Of a stretch of DNA of 64,000 bases, positions 2,866-51,607 are shown in pieces (within the stretch, counting starts at the first letter, position 1; every line of letters begins with the position of its first letter). Location of the stretch: the NCBI GenBank assembly GCA_963746955.1, contig CAVVDR010000026.1, forward strand, positions 8,852 to 72,851, in the 5' to 3' direction. The position numbers were made by a program, and so were the translations under genes. The notes beneath the pieces are model-generated. The model saw nothing but the letters and a program-made list of their open reading frames with translations, was not told the origin of the DNA and searched no databases. Origin of the DNA: an uncultured beta proteobacterium. GTDB taxonomy: Bacteria > Pseudomonadota > Gammaproteobacteria > Burkholderiales > Thiobacillaceae.

Positions 2866-4160
2866 AAGAATATCTGGATTTGCAGCCTGCGAAAGGGGCG
2901 CGCGGCACCATCAAGCTGCCGGGTTCCAAGAGCATTTCCAACCGGGTCCTGCTGCTGTCCGCGCTCGCTGCGGGTACGACCGAGGTCAAGGATCTGCTCG
3001 ATTCGGATGACACGCGGGTGATGCTGGAAGCCCTATGCGCGCTGGGCGTGGGGGTCGAGCGCCACTTCGATTCCGGCGATTATGCGATCAGCGGCGTGGG
3101 CGGGGCCTTCCCCGTCAAGCACGCAGAGCTGTTTCTCGGCAATGCAGGCACGGCCTTTCGCTCGCTGACCGCGGCCTGCGCGCTCTCGGGGGGTGAGTAT
3201 CAGTTATCCGGCGTGGCTCGCATGCACGAGCGGCCGATATGCGATCTGGTGGATGCGTTGAGACGGCTTGGCGCGCGGATCGACTACCTGGGCAATGAGG
3301 GATTCCCGCCCCTGGCCATCAGGCCGGGCCAGACGGCCAGGGTGCCGGAAGTGTCGGTGAAAGGCAATGTGTCCAGCCAGTATCTCACCGGACTCTTGCT
3401 GTCGGCGCCCCTGCTGGAACGGGAGGTGAGAATAAAAGTAGAGGGTGAGCTTATTTCCAAACCCTATATCGGTATTACGCTCGGCCTGATGGAACGCTAC
3501 GGCGTCAAGGTGCAGCGCGAAGACTGGCAGCGTTTCACGGTTCGTGCGACGTCTTATAAGAGCCCCGGCACAATCCATGTTGAAGGCGATGCCTCGTCGG
3601 CCTCATATTTCCTCGCAGCCGGTGCTATTGGCCATGGTCCCGTGCGGGTGGAAGGCGTGGGGCGCAGTAGTCTTCAGGGCGACGTGCAGTTCGCCGCGGC
3701 GCTGGCGCGTATGGGCGTGGAAGTGAGCTTCGGCCCCAACTGGATTGAATCCCGGCTGGGTTGTTCGGACCGGCTGCATGCCCTGGAACTGGACTGCAAC
3801 CACATTCCCGATGCGGCCATGACCCTGGCGGTGCTGGCCTTGTTTGCCGACGGCACCACCACGCTCACCAACATCGGCTCCTGGCGGGTAAAGGAAACCG
3901 ACCGCATAACAGCCATGGCCACCGAATTGCGCAAGTTTGGCGCAATCGTGGAAGAAGGCGCCGACTATCTTCGCATCATCCCTCCTCACGCCTCACGCCT
4001 TACCCCTCACGTCGCCGTTGATACGTATGATGATCACCGCATGGCCATGTGTTTTTCGCTGGTCGCTCTGGGCGGGGTGCCAGTGCGCATCAACGATCCC
4101 GGTTGCGTCAACAAGACCTTTCCGGATTATTTTCACGCTTTTTCTTCCATCCTCAACTAA
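2862..4160 (+). CDS. aroA: 3-phosphoshikimate 1-carboxyvinyltransferase (EPSP synthase)
   Basis: 432 aa with motifs [19 protein letters not shown] and [14 protein letters not shown] overlap with tyrA. Confidence 0.95.
3984..4011 (+). repeat. 4 x 7-nt tandem repeat CCTCACG CCTCACG CCTTACC CCTCACG inside the aroA reading frame
   Basis: Read directly from the sequence. The first 14 nt differ at one position from CCTCACTCCTCACG at 41426-41439. Confidence 0.8.
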
Positions 4161-4820
4161 ATGCCAACCCCGGTCATCACCATTGACGGACCTTCCGCTT
4201 CTGGCAAAGGAACGGTGGCGGAACGGGTTGCCAGCCGGTTGAATTTTCATTACCTGGATAGCGGCGCACTGTATCGGCTGACCGCCCTGGCGGCGATGAA
4301 AGCCTGCGTAGAACTGCATGACGAAACTGCACTGGCAGGCCTGGCGGGCAAGCTGCCGGCCCGTTTTGAGAGCGGCCGGATCTGGCTCAATGACGACGAG
4401 GTGACGGAAACCATCCGCAGCGAATCGGTAGGCGAAGGAGCGTCAAAAGTGGCAGTGCTGCCCCGGGTGCGCGAGGCGCTGCTGGATCGCCAGCGCGCCT
4501 ATCGCAGAGCTCCGGGCCTGGTGGCGGATGGGCGCGACATGGGCTCCGTGGTGTTTCCTGATGCGCAGGCCAAGGTATTCCTGACGGCAAGCGCGGAAGT
4601 CCGCGCGGAAAGGCGATATAAGCAGTTGATCGAAAAAGGATTCTCTGCTAATCTTGCCGCCCTTGTCCAGGAAATGCGGGCAAGGGACGAGCGGGATGCG
4701 GCTCGTCCGGTGGCGCCACTCAGGCCTGCACCGGGCGCGTTGCTGCTGGATACCACCGGTATGTCGATCGATGATGCGGTGGATGCCGTGCTGGAGCATT
4801 ACCGCAATACGTCCAGATGA
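4161..4820 (+). CDS. cmk: Cytidylate kinase
   Basis: 219 aa with P-loop GPSASGKGT. The ATG directly abuts the aroA stop. Conserved aroA-cmk-rpsA order. Confidence 0.95.
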
Positions 4821-4893: not shown

Positions 4894-6627
4894 ATGTCTG
4901 CTGCAACCCAAATCTCCTCCGAACCCATGGAAAGCATGGAAAGTTTTGCTGCCCTGTTTGAGGAATCCCTATCCCGTCAGGAAATGCGCCAGGGAGAAGT
5001 CATCACCGCCGAAGTCATCTCCATCGATGACAACTTCGTCGTGGTGAACGCCGGCCTCAAGTCAGAGAGTCTGATTCTGCGGGAAGAATTTCTCAATGAC
5101 CGGGGCGAGCTTGAAGTCAAGCCTGGCGACTTTGTCCAGGTCGCGATCGAATCCCTGGAAGACGGCTTTGGCTCCACCAAGCTGTCGCGCGACCGCGCCA
5201 AGCGCTTGTCGGCATGGCTGGACCTGGAAGCGGCTATGAACGAAGGCCGCATCGTGAGCGGCCTGGTGCAGGGTCGCGTCAAGGGCGGCCTAACCGTCCT
5301 GATGAACGGACTGCGCGCCTTTTTGCCCGGCTCGCTGGTGGATATGCGCCCGATCAAGGACACCGCGCCCTTCGAAGGCAAGGAGATGGAGTTCAAGGTC
5401 ATCAAGCTGGATCGCAAGCGCAACAACGTGGTGGTTTCCCGTCGCGCCGTGCTGGAGGCGTCCATGGGCGCCGATCGACAGGCGTTGCTCGACAACCTGA
5501 AGGAAGGCCAGGTGATCAAGGGGGTGGTCAAGAACATCACCGATTACGGCGCGTTTGTGGATCTGGGCGGAATCGATGGCCTGTTGCATATCACCGACAT
5601 GGCCTGGCGCCGCGTCAAACATCCCTCGGAAGTCGTACAGGTCGGTCAGGAAGTGGAAGCCAAGATCCTCAAGTTCGATCAGGAAAAGAACCGCGTATCG
5701 CTCGGCCTCAAGCAGTTGGGCGATGATCCCTGGGTGGGCATTGGACGGCGTTACCCGCAGGGCACCCGCATGTTCGGGAAGGTCGCCAACCTGACCGATT
5801 ACGGTTGCTTCGTCGAAATTGAACCGGGCATCGAAGGCCTGGTGCATGTGTCCGAGATGGACTGGACCAACAAGAACGTCAATCCTTCCAAGGTGGTCGC
5901 ACTGGGCGATGAAGTGGAAGTGATGGTGCTGGATATCGATGAAGACAAGCGCCGCATCTCCCTGGGCATGAAGCAGTGCAAGCCCAATCCCTGGGAAGAG
6001 TTTTCGATGAATTACAAGAAGGGTGACAAGGTCAAGGGCGCGATCAAGTCGATCACCGACTTCGGCGTGTTTATCGGCCTGAACGGCGGCATCGACGGAC
6101 TGGTGCACCTTTCCGACCTGTCATGGAACGTTCCCGGCGAAGAAGCGGTGCGCAACTTCCGCAAAGGCCAGGATCTGGAAGCCGTGGTGCTGGGCATCGA
6201 CATGGAGCGCGAGCGGATTTCCCTCGGCATCAAGCAGCTTGAAGGCGATCCCTTCAACTCCTTCGTCGGCACCCACGAAAAGGGCAGCATTGTGAAGGGC
6301 ACGGTCAAGTCGCTCGACGCCAAGGGCGCGGTGATCGATCTGGGTGGCGACATGGAAGGCTACCTGCGGGCTTCCGAAGTATCGCGTGACCGCGTTGAAG
6401 ACATGCGCACGCATCTGAAGGAAGGCGACCAGGTCGAGGCCATGGTGATCAATGTGGATCGCAAGAACCGCCAGATCAACCTTTCCATCAAGGCCAAGGA
6501 CAGCGCCGAACAAGATGTTGCCATGAAGAAATTCTCGGCCGAATCTTCCGCGGCGGCGAGTGGCGCCACCAACCTGGGCGCGCTGCTCAAGGCCAAACTC
6601 GACAACAAGGGCGGCGACCAGCAGTAG
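4894..6627 (+). CDS. rpsA: 30S ribosomal protein S1
   Basis: Six S1 repeats, with FAALFEESL near the N-terminus as in E. coli S1. The track start at 4654 overlaps cmk and is rejected. ATG 4894 is chosen, but ATG 4927 or 4936 is equally possible. Confidence 0.93.
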
Positions 6628-47652: not shown

Positions 47653-48021
47653 CTAGGCAGGTTTGGCGTAAATTCCAAAGCCGGTGACGTCGATCAGCAC
47701 GCAGGGCTTGTCGCCGACGACCCACGCATCGTGCCCGGGCGGCATGTAGAACGCATCGCCGGGGCCGAATTCCATTTCGGTTCCATCGTCCATCTTCACT
47801 GCCATGCGCCCTTCCAAAACGTATCCCGTGTGCGTCGCTTGACAGGAATGCGTTCCGGCAATGGGCTTTACATGCTCAGTCCAGTGCCAGCCGGGCTCGA
47901 AAGTACCGCGTCCCAGAGTGAGACCGCCCAACGTCACGATCTCCGCCCTGCCTTTACCATCCTTGAACGGTCGAAGATCATCCGGGGAATTCAGCGATCT
48001 TCTTGCCAACTGTTGGGGCAT
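47653..48021 (-). CDS. Cupin-domain protein
   Basis: 122 aa single cupin barrel (GYVLEGRMAVKMDDGTEMEFGPGDAFYMPPGHDAWV). No function can be inferred. Confidence 0.7.
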   Translation of the reverse strand: MPQQLARRSLNSPDDLRPFKDGKGRAEIVTLGGLTLGRGTFEPGWHWTEHVKPIAGTHSCQATHTGYVLEGRMAVKMDDGTEMEFGPGDAFYMPPGHDAWVVGDKPCVLIDVTGFGIYAKPA

Positions 48022-48335
48022 GATGTCATCCTCACGGTAAGTCTGGAATTTAACCTTAGTAGCGATTGGGCATAATTCAACCGCGGCATGGAAGAAGTCC
48101 TGGGCTGGTCTGGGCCCGGCTCCGCGAACCTAAATACGGCGGTTCGGCATTTCCGGAATCACGTTTCGAAGGCCACTTATTTTGGACAAAGAATAAGCTC
48201 GGCTCAAGCTTCATTGTCAATTTCCCGCCCATGATCTAAGGTTGATTATTGATGTGGCCTATCGTGTTATCAGCTTGCCGTGCCGCATCGAAATCTGCGT
48301 CCGCACCGCTTCCTTTCTTCCCGGGAGAACCGCCT

Positions 48336-48986
48336 ATGGGCCTCGGCTCTGCGCCCCATCCATCGAGCACCGCCATTCACCCCCTGGTCGTGCGCGTCTG
48401 CCATTGGCTAAACGTCATTGCCGTCCTGATCATGATCTTCAGCGGCTGGCGCATCTACGATGCCTCACCAATTTTCCGATTCGAATTTCCCTCGGGCATC
48501 ACTTTGGGCGGCTGGCTGGCAGGGGCGCTGCAATGGCATTTTGCGGCCATGTGGCTGCTGGTGGTAAACGGCTTGGTGTATGTACTGTATGGCGTGCTTT
48601 CCGGCCATTACCGGCGCAGCCTCTTCCCGTTGCGCGTCAATGCAATGCGGCGCGAATTCGCCAATCTGCTCCACGGTCGGGTCAGCCATACGCTGGGCAG
48701 CTATAACGCGATCCAGAAACTGGCTTATCTGGTTGTCATTCTGCTGGGGGTCACCCTGGTCTTGTCAGGCCTGGCGATCTGGAAGCCGGTGCAGTTCAAG
48801 GAACTGGCCGCGTTGATGGGCGGCTATGATGGAGCGCGGGTGGTGCATTTCGTCGCCATGGCTGGGGTGGTCGGGTTCATTGTGGTTCACGTGTTTATGG
48901 TGGCCCTGGTGCCGCGCACGCTGCCGCCCATGTTTTCCGGGCGCCTGCCGCGGAACGCGCAATCAGTTCCTGGTACGGGGCACTGA
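48336..48986 (+). CDS. Membrane di-haem b-type cytochrome (HyaC/FdnI/PhsC-like cytochrome b family)
   Basis: 216 aa from ATG 48336 with four TM helices. Conserved His residues sit in TM1 (VCHWLN), TM2 (LQWHFAA) and TM4 (VVHFVAMAGVVGFIVVHVF). The stop lies 1 nt before the next gene. Confidence 0.75.
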   Translation: MGLGSAPHPSSTAIHPLVVRVCHWLNVIAVLIMIFSGWRIYDASPIFRFEFPSGITLGGWLAGALQWHFAAMWLLVVNGLVYVLYGVLSGHYRRSLFPLRVNAMRREFANLLHGRVSHTLGSYNAIQKLAYLVVILLGVTLVLSGLAIWKPVQFKELAALMGGYDGARVVHFVAMAGVVGFIVVHVFMVALVPRTLPPMFSGRLPRNAQSVPGTGH

Positions 48987-48987
48987 A

Positions 48988-49749
48988 ATGAGCAAGCCCC
49001 CTCGTCTTATAGGTTTGCTTGAAGATCTGTCCAGCAGGCAGATCGAGCGCATCGAACGGCGGCTGTTCCTCAAGCGTGGCTTGAGCCTGGGGGCGCTGGC
49101 GCTGTTGTCGGGCTGCGAGATTACTGAAAACCACTCGGTGCAGCGCATGCTGCTGGCCATGTCGAAATGGAATGACCGGGCCCAGGGCTGGCTGTTCGAC
49201 CCCAACAAGCTGGCGCCGACTTATCCGGAAAGCGCCATCACCCGGCCCTTTCCCTTCAACGCTTACTACAGCGAGAATGAAGCGCCGGTTGTCGACCCGC
49301 ACAGCTATCGGCTGGAACTGGGCGGGCTGATACGCGATCGCAAACCGTGGACGCTGCCCGAACTCTATGCCCTTCCGCAGGTCTCCCAGATCACCCGCCA
49401 CGTCTGCGTGGAGGGCTGGAGCGCGATAGGGAAATGGAGCGGCACGCCATTCCGCCTGTTCCTGGAGAGGGTAGGCGCAGACCTCGGCGCGAAGTACGTT
49501 GGTTTCATGTGCGCGGACAACTACTACACGAGCATCGACATGGCGACCGCGCTGCATCCTCAGACCCAGCTCAGCTTCAAGTGCGCTGACCAGATCCTGC
49601 CCAGAAAGTACGGCTTTCCGATGAAGCTGCGCATTCCTACCAAACTGGGGTTCAAGAATCCCAAACACATCATGGCGATCTTTGTCACCAACACCTATCC
49701 GGGCGGCTATTGGGAAGACCAGGGCTACAACTGGTTCTCCGGCTCGTGA
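48988..49749 (+). CDS. Molybdopterin-dependent oxidoreductase of the sulfite-oxidase/YedY(MsrP) fold, predicted Tat-exported lipoprotein
   Basis: 253 aa from ATG 48988. Twin-arginine motif RRLFLKRG is followed by lipobox LLSGC. The Mo-ligand cysteine context RHVCVEGWS resembles the YedY/MsrP CVEAWS. Confidence 0.75.
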   Translation: MSKPPRLIGLLEDLSSRQIERIERRLFLKRGLSLGALALLSGCEITENHSVQRMLLAMSKWNDRAQGWLFDPNKLAPTYPESAITRPFPFNAYYSENEAPVVDPHSYRLELGGLIRDRKPWTLPELYALPQVSQITRHVCVEGWSAIGKWSGTPFRLFLERVGADLGAKYVGFMCADNYYTSIDMATALHPQTQLSFKCADQILPRKYGFPMKLRIPTKLGFKNPKHIMAIFVTNTYPGGYWEDQGYNWFSGS

Positions 49750-49766
49750 GTGATTGATCGGCCCTC

Positions 49767-50030
49767 ATGACGCACGTCGCTCTTGCCGTCATGCTCGCGG
49801 TCGCGATGGCATTGCCCCGGACAATCCTGGCGGCTGAAGAAAGCGCCACAGCCGACCGCAAGCCAGCCCAGGATGCGAGACAGGAAATCAGAAATTGGAC
49901 ACCCATGGATATGGACCAGTCCATGCCCACGGGCATGGCGAAACCCGGCATGAAGCTGGGTGACGTGAAGAACAGCGCCGAAAAGAAACGGGCAGAGATG
50001 GAAAAGATGATGCACGAGGAAATGAAATAG
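49767..50030 (+). CDS. Small secreted methionine-rich peptide (hypothetical)
   Basis: 87 aa with signal peptide MTHVALAVMLAVAMALPRTILA|AEE. The predicted mature 65 aa contain 9 Met (hand count), are highly charged and have no Cys. Third codon positions are GC-rich, like neighbouring genes. The SD is weak. Confidence 0.55.
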   Translation: MTHVALAVMLAVAMALPRTILAAEESATADRKPAQDARQEIRNWTPMDMDQSMPTGMAKPGMKLGDVKNSAEKKRAEMEKMMHEEMK

Positions 50031-50187
50031 GCTTGGGGAATTCCTTGCCACAGTAGCTGTCAGCGCTTGCATTTCAATTTCCTTCCGGTACCAGCATGAC
50101 AAGATCGCTTCCCTCCCGCGCTTTGAGGTCAGGCATTTGAAATGATCCACCGACAGCGACTTCATAACTTCTGGGCGATCCATTAAG

Positions 50188-50336
50188 ATTGGCTCGGGCC
50201 CGCACCGCTTGATGCCGTGGCCAAAACGATCCGGCTCCCCGGGGACGTAAGCCGAAGAAATGTTTGATGCCTTCGCGGAGTCGTGCAGAACGCGGCGCTC
50301 GCGTCGGCTGCAATCCGGCTGTGCAGGAATACGGCA
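50188..50336 (+). pseudogene. Decayed, internally deleted copy of an HU (hupB-like) gene
   Basis: 50252-50293 matches hupB 51836-51879 at 40/44 columns by hand count (CCGAAGAAATGTTTGATGCCTTCGCGGAGTCGTGCAGAACGCG). The flanks match codons ~6-20 (LDAVAK) and the RIGRNP-arm region (TCGGCTGCAATCCGGC vs TCGGCCGCAATCCGGC). About 60 nt are missing, and there are frameshifts and an in-frame TAA. Confidence 0.65.
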
Positions 50337-50360
50337 ATAACTGGAAATCAATGGGCGAGA

Positions 50361-50978
50361 CTACAACTCAATCCCATCCAGAAACTTTCTAAGGCCGTCT
50401 TTGGCGCCGTCGATCCAGGGAGCGCCGTGGGCGAACAGCAGGTGGTCGAATTCGCGTTCGTGAACCTGCTTGAGAAGAATCTTTCGGAGCCCCCGCTTGA
50501 CGCCTTCCGGTTCCTCGCCCATATACTCGTCCGGCACGAAACCCAGTTTTCCGTTGGAGCGCACAATTGCGTCGCCGATGGCCAGAATACCTCCGTTCAG
50601 CGGGAAATACAGCGCCGTTTCTTCAGGGCACAGCACCCCGACTTTCAGGGCCAAGACCCCTCCGGGTAATTTCGTGCCATGGGTGAAGCCCTTGACCTTC
50701 TCGCCTCTGGTGAATTCGTGCAATCCGTCCCTGTGGCACCAGACCTGCGCGCCGTAGCGGGCAGCAAAGCGGTCGCTGTGCCGGTAGTGGTGGCGGTTGG
50801 TAAGGTAGATGTGCTGTGGCATTCCGTGCGCAGCAAACCACTCCAAGCCTTGAGCCGGGACGCGGGGGTCGATCAGCACCACTGGATCGGTGGCGTTGAT
50901 GCAGTAGGAGTGGACATAGGCGCGGATGCCCTCGTGGAAGGTTTTCCAATGAAAAACGCCGGGCAAAATTTCTTTCAT
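50361..50978 (-). CDS. MBL-fold metallo-hydrolase
   Basis: 205 aa from ATG 50978. It has a beta-lactamase-fold layout with a degenerate His motif (TNRHHYRHSD) and distal His/Asp residues. Confidence 0.6.
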   Translation of the reverse strand: MKEILPGVFHWKTFHEGIRAYVHSYCINATDPVVLIDPRVPAQGLEWFAAHGMPQHIYLTNRHHYRHSDRFAARYGAQVWCHRDGLHEFTRGEKVKGFTHGTKLPGGVLALKVGVLCPEETALYFPLNGGILAIGDAIVRSNGKLGFVPDEYMGEEPEGVKRGLRKILLKQVHEREFDHLLFAHGAPWIDGAKDGLRKFLDGIEL

Positions 50979-51061
50979 GGTTGGAGTTCCCTGCTTCAGT
51001 AAAGACGATTTGCCGGGCAAAGGAAACTGTCGTTCCCTGGTGTTATCCGGTAAAGCCCCCG

Positions 51062-51607
51062 CTATCGAGAAACTGCTGCTCCTCCGCCGTGGTTTTCCGC
51101 CCCAGGATTTCTGTTGCGGTGCGGAAATCGCCCGAAATACCGGATTATCTCGCGATGCTCGAGCGCGTGTTTGAGGTAGTCGACACCGAGCCGCCCACTT
51201 AATTCCACCGATTTGTCCTGATCGGCGCGATCCTCAGAATGGGCGAAGGGAAGATAGAAGAACAAACGAAGATCGGCCGGGGCCTGTAAATCGAAACCGG
51301 CTGCGATTGCATTCTCCGCAAGCTGCCGCGCCAGCTTGTCGGTCGCGTACATGCGCGCAGTACCGCGAAAGGCGTTGCGCGGAAATTGGTCCAGCAGAAT
51401 CGCCAGGGCAAGAGCGCCAAGCGCATCGTCTGCCCAGCCATCAAGCTTGCCCTGCGCTGCGGCTTCGTGAAGACTCAGGAAACGCGCGCGAAACTCGGCA
51501 TCGAAAGCGGCGTTCTTCATGAACCATCGTCGCGGTCCGGCATCGCGCCAGAAATTGATGACGGCTTCAACGTCATGATTGGCCAATTGCCTGACGAGCT
51601 TGGTCAT
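51062..51607 (-). CDS. DUF924 family protein
   Basis: 181 aa with the family-typical WF..D..FD..IR..F ... LDQFPRN ... FYLPF.HSE pattern. Confidence 0.7.
   Translation of the reverse strand: MTKLVRQLANHDVEAVINFWRDAGPRRWFMKNAAFDAEFRARFLSLHEAAAQGKLDGWADDALGALALAILLDQFPRNAFRGTARMYATDKLARQLAENAIAAGFDLQAPADLRLFFYLPFAHSEDRADQDKSVELSGRLGVDYLKHALEHREIIRYFGRFPHRNRNPGAENHGGGAAVSR

Follow-up and report, generated by a model that had tools for sequence, protein, structure and literature searches.

In Escherichia coli K-12, the MsrPQ (YedYZ) system couples a periplasmic molybdenum (Mo) enzyme of the sulfite-oxidase fold, exported by the twin-arginine translocation (Tat) pathway, to a haem-b membrane partner. 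MsrP is soluble and not a lipoprotein, and MsrQ, annotated as a flavocytochrome, belongs to the ferric-reductase-like family. Other operons add a small secreted peptide rich in methionine (Met). In Azospira suillum PS, yedZ1 adjoins sigF, and the peptide MrpX (20% Met, 44% charged residues, little sequence conservation) responds to chlorite and hypochlorite with a 20- to 60-fold induction and is itself oxidised by hypochlorous acid (HOCl) (PMC4436054). In E. coli CFT073, the genes c3566-c3568 are co-transcribed, are directly controlled by OrhK/OrhR (c3564/c3565), and are induced inside macrophages and by tert-butyl hydroperoxide, the peroxide stress of that study; mutants in c3566 and c3567 are peroxide-sensitive and survive less well in macrophages (PMC8550376, PLoS Pathog 2021). 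Melnyk et al. (mBio 2015) list this E. coli operon as 'yedYZ-mrpX' (PMC4436054). The subject of the present analysis is a related three-gene locus at positions 48336-50030 of a 64-kb stretch of DNA (hereafter the window; contig CAVVDR010000026.1) from an uncultured beta proteobacterium of the Thiobacillaceae.

The locus consists of three tightly packed open reading frames (ORFs) on the + strand, separated by spacers of 1 and then 17 nucleotides, which encode a cytochrome b, an Mo enzyme and a secreted Met-rich peptide. The three genes probably constitute one operon for periplasmic methionine redox buffering, of the same kind as c3566-c3568 and, by inference, as the Azospira YedY1Z1-MrpX system. 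An initial annotation, made from the sequence alone, had described these three co-oriented genes and their spacing, a four-segment b-type cytochrome unlike MsrQ/YedZ with histidines in the first and second membrane segments and two in the fourth, a 253-residue Mo enzyme of the sulfite-oxidase fold with both a Tat motif and a lipobox, an 87-residue ORF with a signal-like N-terminus and a Met-rich, charged, Cys-free mature part, and the absence of a SigF/NrsF-type regulator nearby. All of these descriptions were borne out, and the functional analogy it drew with MsrPQ and MrpX (an Mo enzyme, a haem-b partner and a Met-rich peptide) is strongly supported by comparative genomics. Its further proposal, that the cassette was assembled from different or new parts, did not survive the comparisons that follow.

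The closest characterized counterpart is c3566-c3568 of CFT073, in which a PF01292-type cytochrome b, a Tat-lipoprotein Mo enzyme and a secreted Met-rich peptide of about 80 residues are encoded in the same order. The window Mo enzyme shares 58% identity with C3567 (E 3e-105) and 59% with its orthologue from strain A24 (E 4e-112), while the cytochrome b is 51% identical to the C3566 orthologue (E 9e-64). The E. coli Mo enzyme begins with the same twin-arginine-plus-lipobox arrangement (RRRLLQQGLTLGGIMMLTGC), and C3568 is a Met-rich secreted peptide. In the CFT073 genome, the locus (c3564-c3568 of PMC8550376) reads sensor kinase and response regulator, then divergently a 'cytochrome b/b6 domain protein', a 'molybdopterin-dependent oxidoreductase', an 80-residue hypothetical protein and hlyCABD. 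The role proposed for both operons is oxidant protection. They differ in their surroundings and in their peptides. The E. coli operon resides on a pathogenicity island or on plasmids, adjoins a divergent kinase and regulator pair and reads through into hlyCABD, whereas the window operon is set among housekeeping genes (nuoLMN, pfkA, mutS) and has no adjoining regulator. Likewise, the E. coli peptide is of a degenerate MXKDX type with two Cys and scores 34 bits against the TIGR02953 model, whereas the window peptide has no Cys and no TIGR02953 match. As the enzyme pair and the operon logic are already known from E. coli, and the enzyme pair is shared with an Azonexus locus described below, the claim of different parts falls. 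The window operon is an ordinary member of a known system, and what is particular to it is the peptide subtype and the regulator-less housekeeping setting.

Several observations concern the E. coli operon itself. RefSeq treats the CFT073 cytochrome b gene (c3566, locus L095, 15551-16149) as a frameshifted pseudogene, despite the published deletion phenotypes; the gene is intact in A24 and on plasmids. An operon of cytochrome b, Mo enzyme and peptide accompanied by a two-component regulator occurs in 353 of 5426 complete E. coli genomes. Plasmids account for 75 of the 366 matching places, with insertion sequence elements flanking (cf. L083, plasmid pM1-5_120), which indicates that the operon is mobile in E. 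coli.

The catalytic subunit is a single PF00174 Oxidored_molyb domain (E 7.6e-26) with the sulfite-oxidase fold, and its nearest solved structure, by sequence and by fold, is E. coli YedY (1XDQ/1XDY). The AlphaFold model, of moderate quality (predicted local distance difference test 66, predicted template-modelling score 0.64), served solely to establish the fold and this nearest structure and not active-site detail. The Mo-ligand Cys is residue 140, within the motif RHVCVEGWS, which aligns with RCVEAWS of E. coli MsrP. At the N-terminus (ERRLFLK...LLSGC), the twin-arginine motif RRLFLK spans residues 24-29 and is followed by a lipobox, LSGC, whose Cys43 is the lipidation site. Both features are family traits. 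Of 81 homologues, 77 match a strict pattern for a Tat motif plus lipobox (the latter mostly L[ST]GC), and inspection by eye adds at least two of the other four; RH[IV]C[VI]EGWS is present in 80 of the 81, the last being a truncated fragment in locus L082. Since the lipid-modified Cys is followed by N, D, S or E, the membrane to which the protein is sorted is not readable from E. coli rules.

Alongside these likenesses to MsrP, which include the Cys motif, there are clear differences. MsrP is about 80 residues longer (334 versus 253) and is 27% identical to the window enzyme in an alignment with large gaps. The top NCBIfam model for the window protein is indeed MsrP (NF003767), at 67 bits and E 1.7e-18, but the equivalog cut-off is 207 bits. 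The gene order is also reversed in the canonical system, where msrP precedes msrQ and no dedicated peptide follows, as opposed to cytochrome b, Mo enzyme and peptide in the window. The membrane partners diverge further still, as the window protein falls into PF01292 and a BLASTP comparison with E. coli MsrQ returned no similarity (best E 4.0). With 27% identity, 67 bits against 207 and no similarity to MsrQ, the window pair is not canonical MsrPQ. Nor is a canonical pair encoded elsewhere in the window, as tblastn searches of all 64 kb with MsrP and MsrQ matched the Mo gene alone.

The cytochrome b matches Pfam PF01292, Ni_hydr_CYTB ('prokaryotic cytochrome b561'), with E 3e-27. Its closest NCBIfam models are the cytochrome b subunits of hydrogenases and formate dehydrogenases, all far below their equivalog cut-offs, and the FdnI structure 1KQF_C is a weak match. 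Hydropathy delineates four membrane segments, on which an alignment of 80 homologues places four invariant histidines: H23 in the first segment, H68 at the start of the second, and H171 and H185 in the fourth. This one-one-two pattern is that of two-haem cytochromes of the FdnI/HyaC type; H118 is likewise invariant. Such a protein would be the quinol-oxidising membrane electron donor of the system. A homologue lies directly 5' of the Mo gene in 79 of 80 genome loci, and the remaining locus is cut off at its 5' end.

Those 80 loci, numbered here with the prefix L, were collected around genes whose products are 62-79% identical to the window Mo enzyme. They span Beta-, Gamma- and Alphaproteobacteria, among them Pseudomonas, Paraburkholderia, Cupriavidus, Achromobacter, Dechloromonas, Buttiauxella and Serratia. 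A strict definition of a Met-rich secreted ORF (a signal-like N-terminus, a Met content of 10% or more and a charged-residue content of 25% or more), applied to both strands of 759 kb, yielded 46 ORFs, 43 of which immediately follow the Mo gene in the same orientation; the remaining three appear to be spurious. This first definition undercounted positive loci (38 of 79) through its start-codon and signal-peptide heuristics. A looser scan for composition gave 47 matches, including one false positive, such that about 46 of 79 loci (about 58%) encode the peptide, as compared with 11 of 1097 control windows (1%; Fisher p about 2e-50). The co-occurrence of Met-rich secreted ORFs with the Mo enzyme and cytochrome pair, which the initial annotation had put forward as a test of its idea, is thus pronounced, and linkage of the ORF to the pair, the loss of which would have counted against that idea, is kept in related loci. 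The majority of the peptides found after the Mo gene are TIGR02953 'pentapeptide MXKDX repeat' proteins.

The false positive, an ORF that starts at about 5980 after the Mo gene of L014, contains two CxxCH motifs (CVQCH, CQQCH) and therefore looks like a two-haem cytochrome c and not a Met-rich peptide. Loci without a Met-rich ORF often encode another small secreted protein, co-oriented and just 5' of the cytochrome b gene. For instance, a conserved secreted protein of about 210 residues with a weak DUF5666 match is found upstream in Paraburkholderia (L017, L024, L025, L033, L036; approximately 3575-4225), and a 110-residue secreted protein precedes the cytochrome b gene in Sulfuricella (L003, 3804-4136; L008, 3893-4225). 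These proteins could be alternative partners or substrates of the enzyme pair. Regulators are unevenly distributed as well. The immediate upstream neighbours of 73 loci include six OmpR-type response regulators, two NrsF proteins and two extracytoplasmic function (ECF) sigma factors, and many loci have none of these. With an adjoining regulator present in some loci only, regulation by a neighbour is not a strict feature of the family.

The third gene of the window encodes a predicted Sec signal peptide followed by a mature part of 65 residues that contains 9 Met (13.8%), 25 charged residues (38%), one His and no Cys. The Met residues are irregularly spaced, 4-5 residues apart, without tandem M-x-K-D-x pentapeptides. 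Pfam and NCBIfam, metal-binding families included, provided no match, and TIGR02953 (cut-off 41 bits) gave none at E values up to 1. The length and frame of the ORF are nevertheless kept in three related genomes. Compared with the most distant copy, the mature part shows 0.079 nonsynonymous (dN) and 0.757 synonymous (dS) substitutions per site, a dN/dS of about 0.1, with no loss of any of the nine Met. The signal peptide segment evolves faster (dN 0.34 versus 0.08), as is usual for signal peptides. The mature peptide is under purifying selection, and the 87-residue ORF is a genuine gene.

A word-indexed homology search with the peptide retrieved three close homologues, two of which were located in syntenic contigs. 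An exact-word index misses short peptides of biased composition, and this small number at first suggested non-conservation, an impression corrected by the locus survey and by a profile search. The latter, against 1.84 billion representatives, recovered 64 related clusters of 43-118 residues each. What they have in common is a single core of about 40 residues, with the consensus K-P-M-x-M-D-E-P-M-P-T-G-M-A-K-P-G-M-K-K-G-D-V-K-K-A-A-E-K-K-x-x-E-M-x-x-M-M-x-x-E. Conservation among the 65 aligned sequences is complete at M57 and K/R59 (65 each) and nearly so at M53 (64), V67 (62), G65 (61), and P52, M62 and D66 (60 each). The same core can be aligned in the L002 and L010 peptides and in the second of the two L055 peptides, and an independent gene caller also called the orthologous ORF in L081 and L082. 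Six of the seven representatives whose context was looked up directly follow this Mo gene, and one lies elsewhere. A core-bearing peptide away from the enzyme pair (P0251; L088, 1075-1320; L089, 632-877) is encoded between DUF1993 and glutathione S-transferase genes.

In size, signal peptide, Met-rich charged composition and position directly after the Mo gene, the window peptide resembles the TIGR02953 proteins (the MrpX, BcrX and C3568 type). Unlike them, it is built on the single core shared by the 64 clusters and not on tandem pentapeptides. It is a member of an unannotated conserved-core family that is distinct from TIGR02953 and is found almost always after this Mo gene. The two styles can coexist, as L055 encodes an MXKDX-repeat peptide (5098-5394) and a conserved-core peptide (about 5465-5731) in tandem after its Mo gene. 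They may also be distant relatives, because the L002 peptide, which has the core, matches TIGR02953 weakly (17 bits); the peptides of L022 and L035 score 61 and 106 bits.

The Azospira system resembles the window operon in that a Met-rich, charged, secreted peptide, there a co-transcribed hypochlorite sink, is encoded together with a Tat-exported Mo enzyme and a membrane partner. The window peptide is less extreme in composition than MrpX and has a conserved core where MrpX is little conserved. A second difference is that Azospira has SigF and NrsF, whereas tblastn of the whole 64-kb window found no match to SigF, NrsF or an OrhK/OrhR-type kinase and regulator. Whether the enzymes are of the same families can be approached through locus L022 (374-6100), from an Azonexus genome assembled from a metagenome. 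Here, genes for a PAS sensor kinase, a cupin, NrsF and an ECF sigma factor are divergent from those for a PF01292-family cytochrome b, an Mo enzyme and an MXKDX peptide. The same layout is published for the Azospira perchlorate island, Dsui_0153-0158, and L022 combines it with the cytochrome b and Mo enzyme families of the window. In addition, a Georgfuchsia protein annotated 'YedZ1' is 80% identical to the window Mo enzyme. From this layout, this annotation and the position of yedZ1 next to sigF, we infer that Azospira YedY1Z1 probably belongs to the same family as the window pair. The Azospira proteins themselves were absent among the 120 matches listed in a search with the Azonexus Mo protein.

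A plausible sequence of events can be put forward for the window operon. The two-haem cytochrome b would draw electrons, presumably from quinol, out of the inner-membrane pool and hand them to the Mo enzyme, which the Tat pathway would export in folded form and which would be anchored in a membrane by its N-terminal lipid. The Mo enzyme, if its subfamily has this activity, would reduce methionine sulfoxide to methionine. The exposed Met residues of the secreted peptide would be oxidised first by hypochlorite-type or peroxide oxidants and then be re-reduced, so that the mature peptide would be at once a sacrificial oxidant sink and a substrate of the Mo enzyme, that is, a renewable sink. Repair of other envelope proteins may be a further task of the enzyme. 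Oxidant induction, the protection phenotypes of E. coli and Azospira and the oxidation of MrpX by HOCl are taken from the published work on those organisms, and any corresponding regulation in this one is presumed.

A number of points weigh against this scheme. Methionine-sulfoxide reductase activity of this Mo-enzyme subfamily is only 'putative' in the literature (PMC4436054, PMC8550376), and the score of the window enzyme lies far below the MsrP equivalog cut-off (67 versus 207 bits). A Met-rich ORF is missing from about 40% of related loci, which implies that the enzyme does not depend on such a peptide. The operon of this organism has no adjoining regulator and no recognisable promoter. 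The link to the Azospira proteins comes from locus layout and an annotation name and not from Azospira protein sequences. Lastly, a passive, unstructured sink would hardly seem to require conservation as strong as that of the core of about 40 residues.

Some of the same points feed an alternative in which the pair acts on a different periplasmic substrate (small-molecule sulfoxides, N-oxides or a sulfur oxyanion, for example), either as a reductase fed by quinol or as an oxidase linked to quinone, and in which the peptide is a specific accessory partner in docking, assembly or regulation and not a sacrificial substrate. The remoteness of the subfamily from MsrP (27% identity, below the equivalog cut-off) would fit, as would the loci that lack a Met-rich ORF, some of which have other small secreted proteins beside the pair, and the core motif (GDVK, PMPTGM), which has the look of a recognition element. 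In vitro, several S- and N-oxides serve as substrates for reduction by E. coli YedY. We nonetheless regard this alternative as unlikely. E. coli and Azospira genetics tie this type of operon to oxidant defence (PMC8550376, PMC4436054). Extreme Met content is seen in neighbouring peptides of two unrelated styles, MXKDX repeats and conserved-core, and this convergence suggests that methionine itself is the functional feature. Furthermore, the Mo enzyme is single-domain, without the dimerisation domain or cytochrome c partner of sulfite dehydrogenases, and YedY is its best structural match.

The conservation of the core can also be accommodated by a more specific and decidedly tentative variant of methionine buffering. 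The core may be a docking or recognition element through which the peptide serves the Mo lipoprotein specifically, as a redox-cycling substrate or an adaptor, or the peptide may possibly combine Cu(I) binding with oxidant sensing, the conserved-core family having replaced the MXKDX-repeat peptides beside the Mo enzyme. If the docking core were real, the system would be a two-component antioxidant of enzyme and cosubstrate, like thioredoxin with its reductase, and not a general repair enzyme with a decoy.

A purely metal-directed function is more improbable still. In this alternative, the peptide would bind Cu(I)/Ag(I) in the periplasm as a sponge or metallochaperone, in the manner of PcoE/SilE or of the CopA Met motifs, and the enzyme pair would take part in metal redox handling or be an unrelated neighbour. 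The spacing of the core Met residues by 4-5 positions (PMxMDEPMPTGMAKPGM) resembles thioether Cu(I) motifs, the core is conserved beyond what a passive sink needs, and two relatives of the MXKDX type match the CopL family weakly (E 0.13-0.47). The window peptide, however, matches no metal-binding family in Pfam or NCBIfam and has a single His and no Cys. No cop, cus, pco or sil gene occurs among the immediate upstream neighbours of the 73 loci, a comparison that for the window itself is to be read with its other ORFs not systematically annotated. By these measures (family match, His/Met metal motifs, and metal-resistance linkage among immediate upstream neighbours), the peptide does not resemble PcoE or SilE. 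Where regulators adjoin, they are of oxidant-sensing type (SigF/NrsF, or a response regulator and kinase as in OrhK/OrhR), and the fixed partner is an MsrP-like Mo enzyme and not a multicopper oxidase or an efflux system.

That the 87-residue ORF is a chance open frame beside a genuine two-gene enzyme pair is effectively refuted, for although it matches no family model, the word-indexed search turned up just three close homologues and its Shine-Dalgarno sequence is weak, its frame and length are kept in three genomes with a dN/dS of about 0.1 in the mature part, 64 related clusters are of similar length with six of seven at the same genomic position, and its orthologue was called independently in L081 and L082.

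The coordinates of the operon and its control region are collected in Table 1. A Shine-Dalgarno-like GGGAGA lies 5' of the cytochrome b ATG. Pattern scans for sigma-70 promoters and terminators across 47900-50450 found sites no more numerous than in shuffled sequence, and the operon region has no match among the Rfam families scanned, which included the Mo cofactor riboswitch. The divergent cupin gene was considered as a counterpart of the perchlorate-island cupin and rejected, the similarity being limited to E 0.048 over 19 residues. Downstream, about 330 nucleotides of unannotated sequence separate the peptide gene from two convergent genes on the - strand, a 219-residue ORF (50361-51020) with a marginal metallo-beta-lactamase-fold match (E 0.0086, below the cut-off) and a DUF924 gene (51062-51607). 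An antisense ORF of 208 residues (49725-50351, - strand) overlaps the peptide gene, and long antisense ORFs of a 'MPSFF...' type also lie opposite many MXKDX genes (e.g. in L043 and L045). Such antisense ORFs are artefacts of a repetitive, GC-rich coding strand and could mislead gene callers.

Table 1. Features of the operon and its upstream region (window coordinates)
Feature	Position	Strand	Basis or remark
Cupin gene	47653-48021	-	divergent from the operon
Intergenic region	48022..48335	.	between divergent cupin gene and operon; presumed location of promoter and regulatory sites
Cytochrome b subunit, 216 residues	48336..48986	+	PF01292
Mo-cofactor catalytic subunit, 253 residues	48988..49749	+	PF00174
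Met-rich peptide gene, 87 residues	49767-50030	+	read from sequence, composition
Predicted Sec signal peptide, residues 1-22, MTHVALAVMLAVAMALPRTILA	49767..49832	+	read from sequence; inferred cleavage before AEE
Mature Met-rich peptide, 65 residues plus stop codon	49833..50030	+	composition
Conserved core, peptide residues 45-85	49899..50021	+	alignment of 65 sequences

The pair of Mo enzyme and cytochrome b is very widespread, spanning Beta-, Gamma- and Alphaproteobacteria, and database matches to the Mo enzyme exceed 8000 proteins, the best 120 of which are 74-92% identical. Among the papers searched, none mentions both MrpX and b561, and four mention MXKDX. What the present comparison clarifies is that the membrane subunit described as 'YedZ/MsrQ-like' is a cytochrome b of the FdnI/HyaC type and that the Mo subunit is a Tat lipoprotein. 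The operons of uropathogenic E. coli, and probably those of perchlorate reducers, that are annotated as 'YedYZ-MrpX' or 'MsrPQ-like' are not MsrPQ paralogues in their membrane half. The unannotated conserved-core peptide family offers a tidy target for biochemistry. Taken together, the overwhelming statistical link between this enzyme pair and Met-rich peptides of two styles is evidence for methionine buffering as its function.

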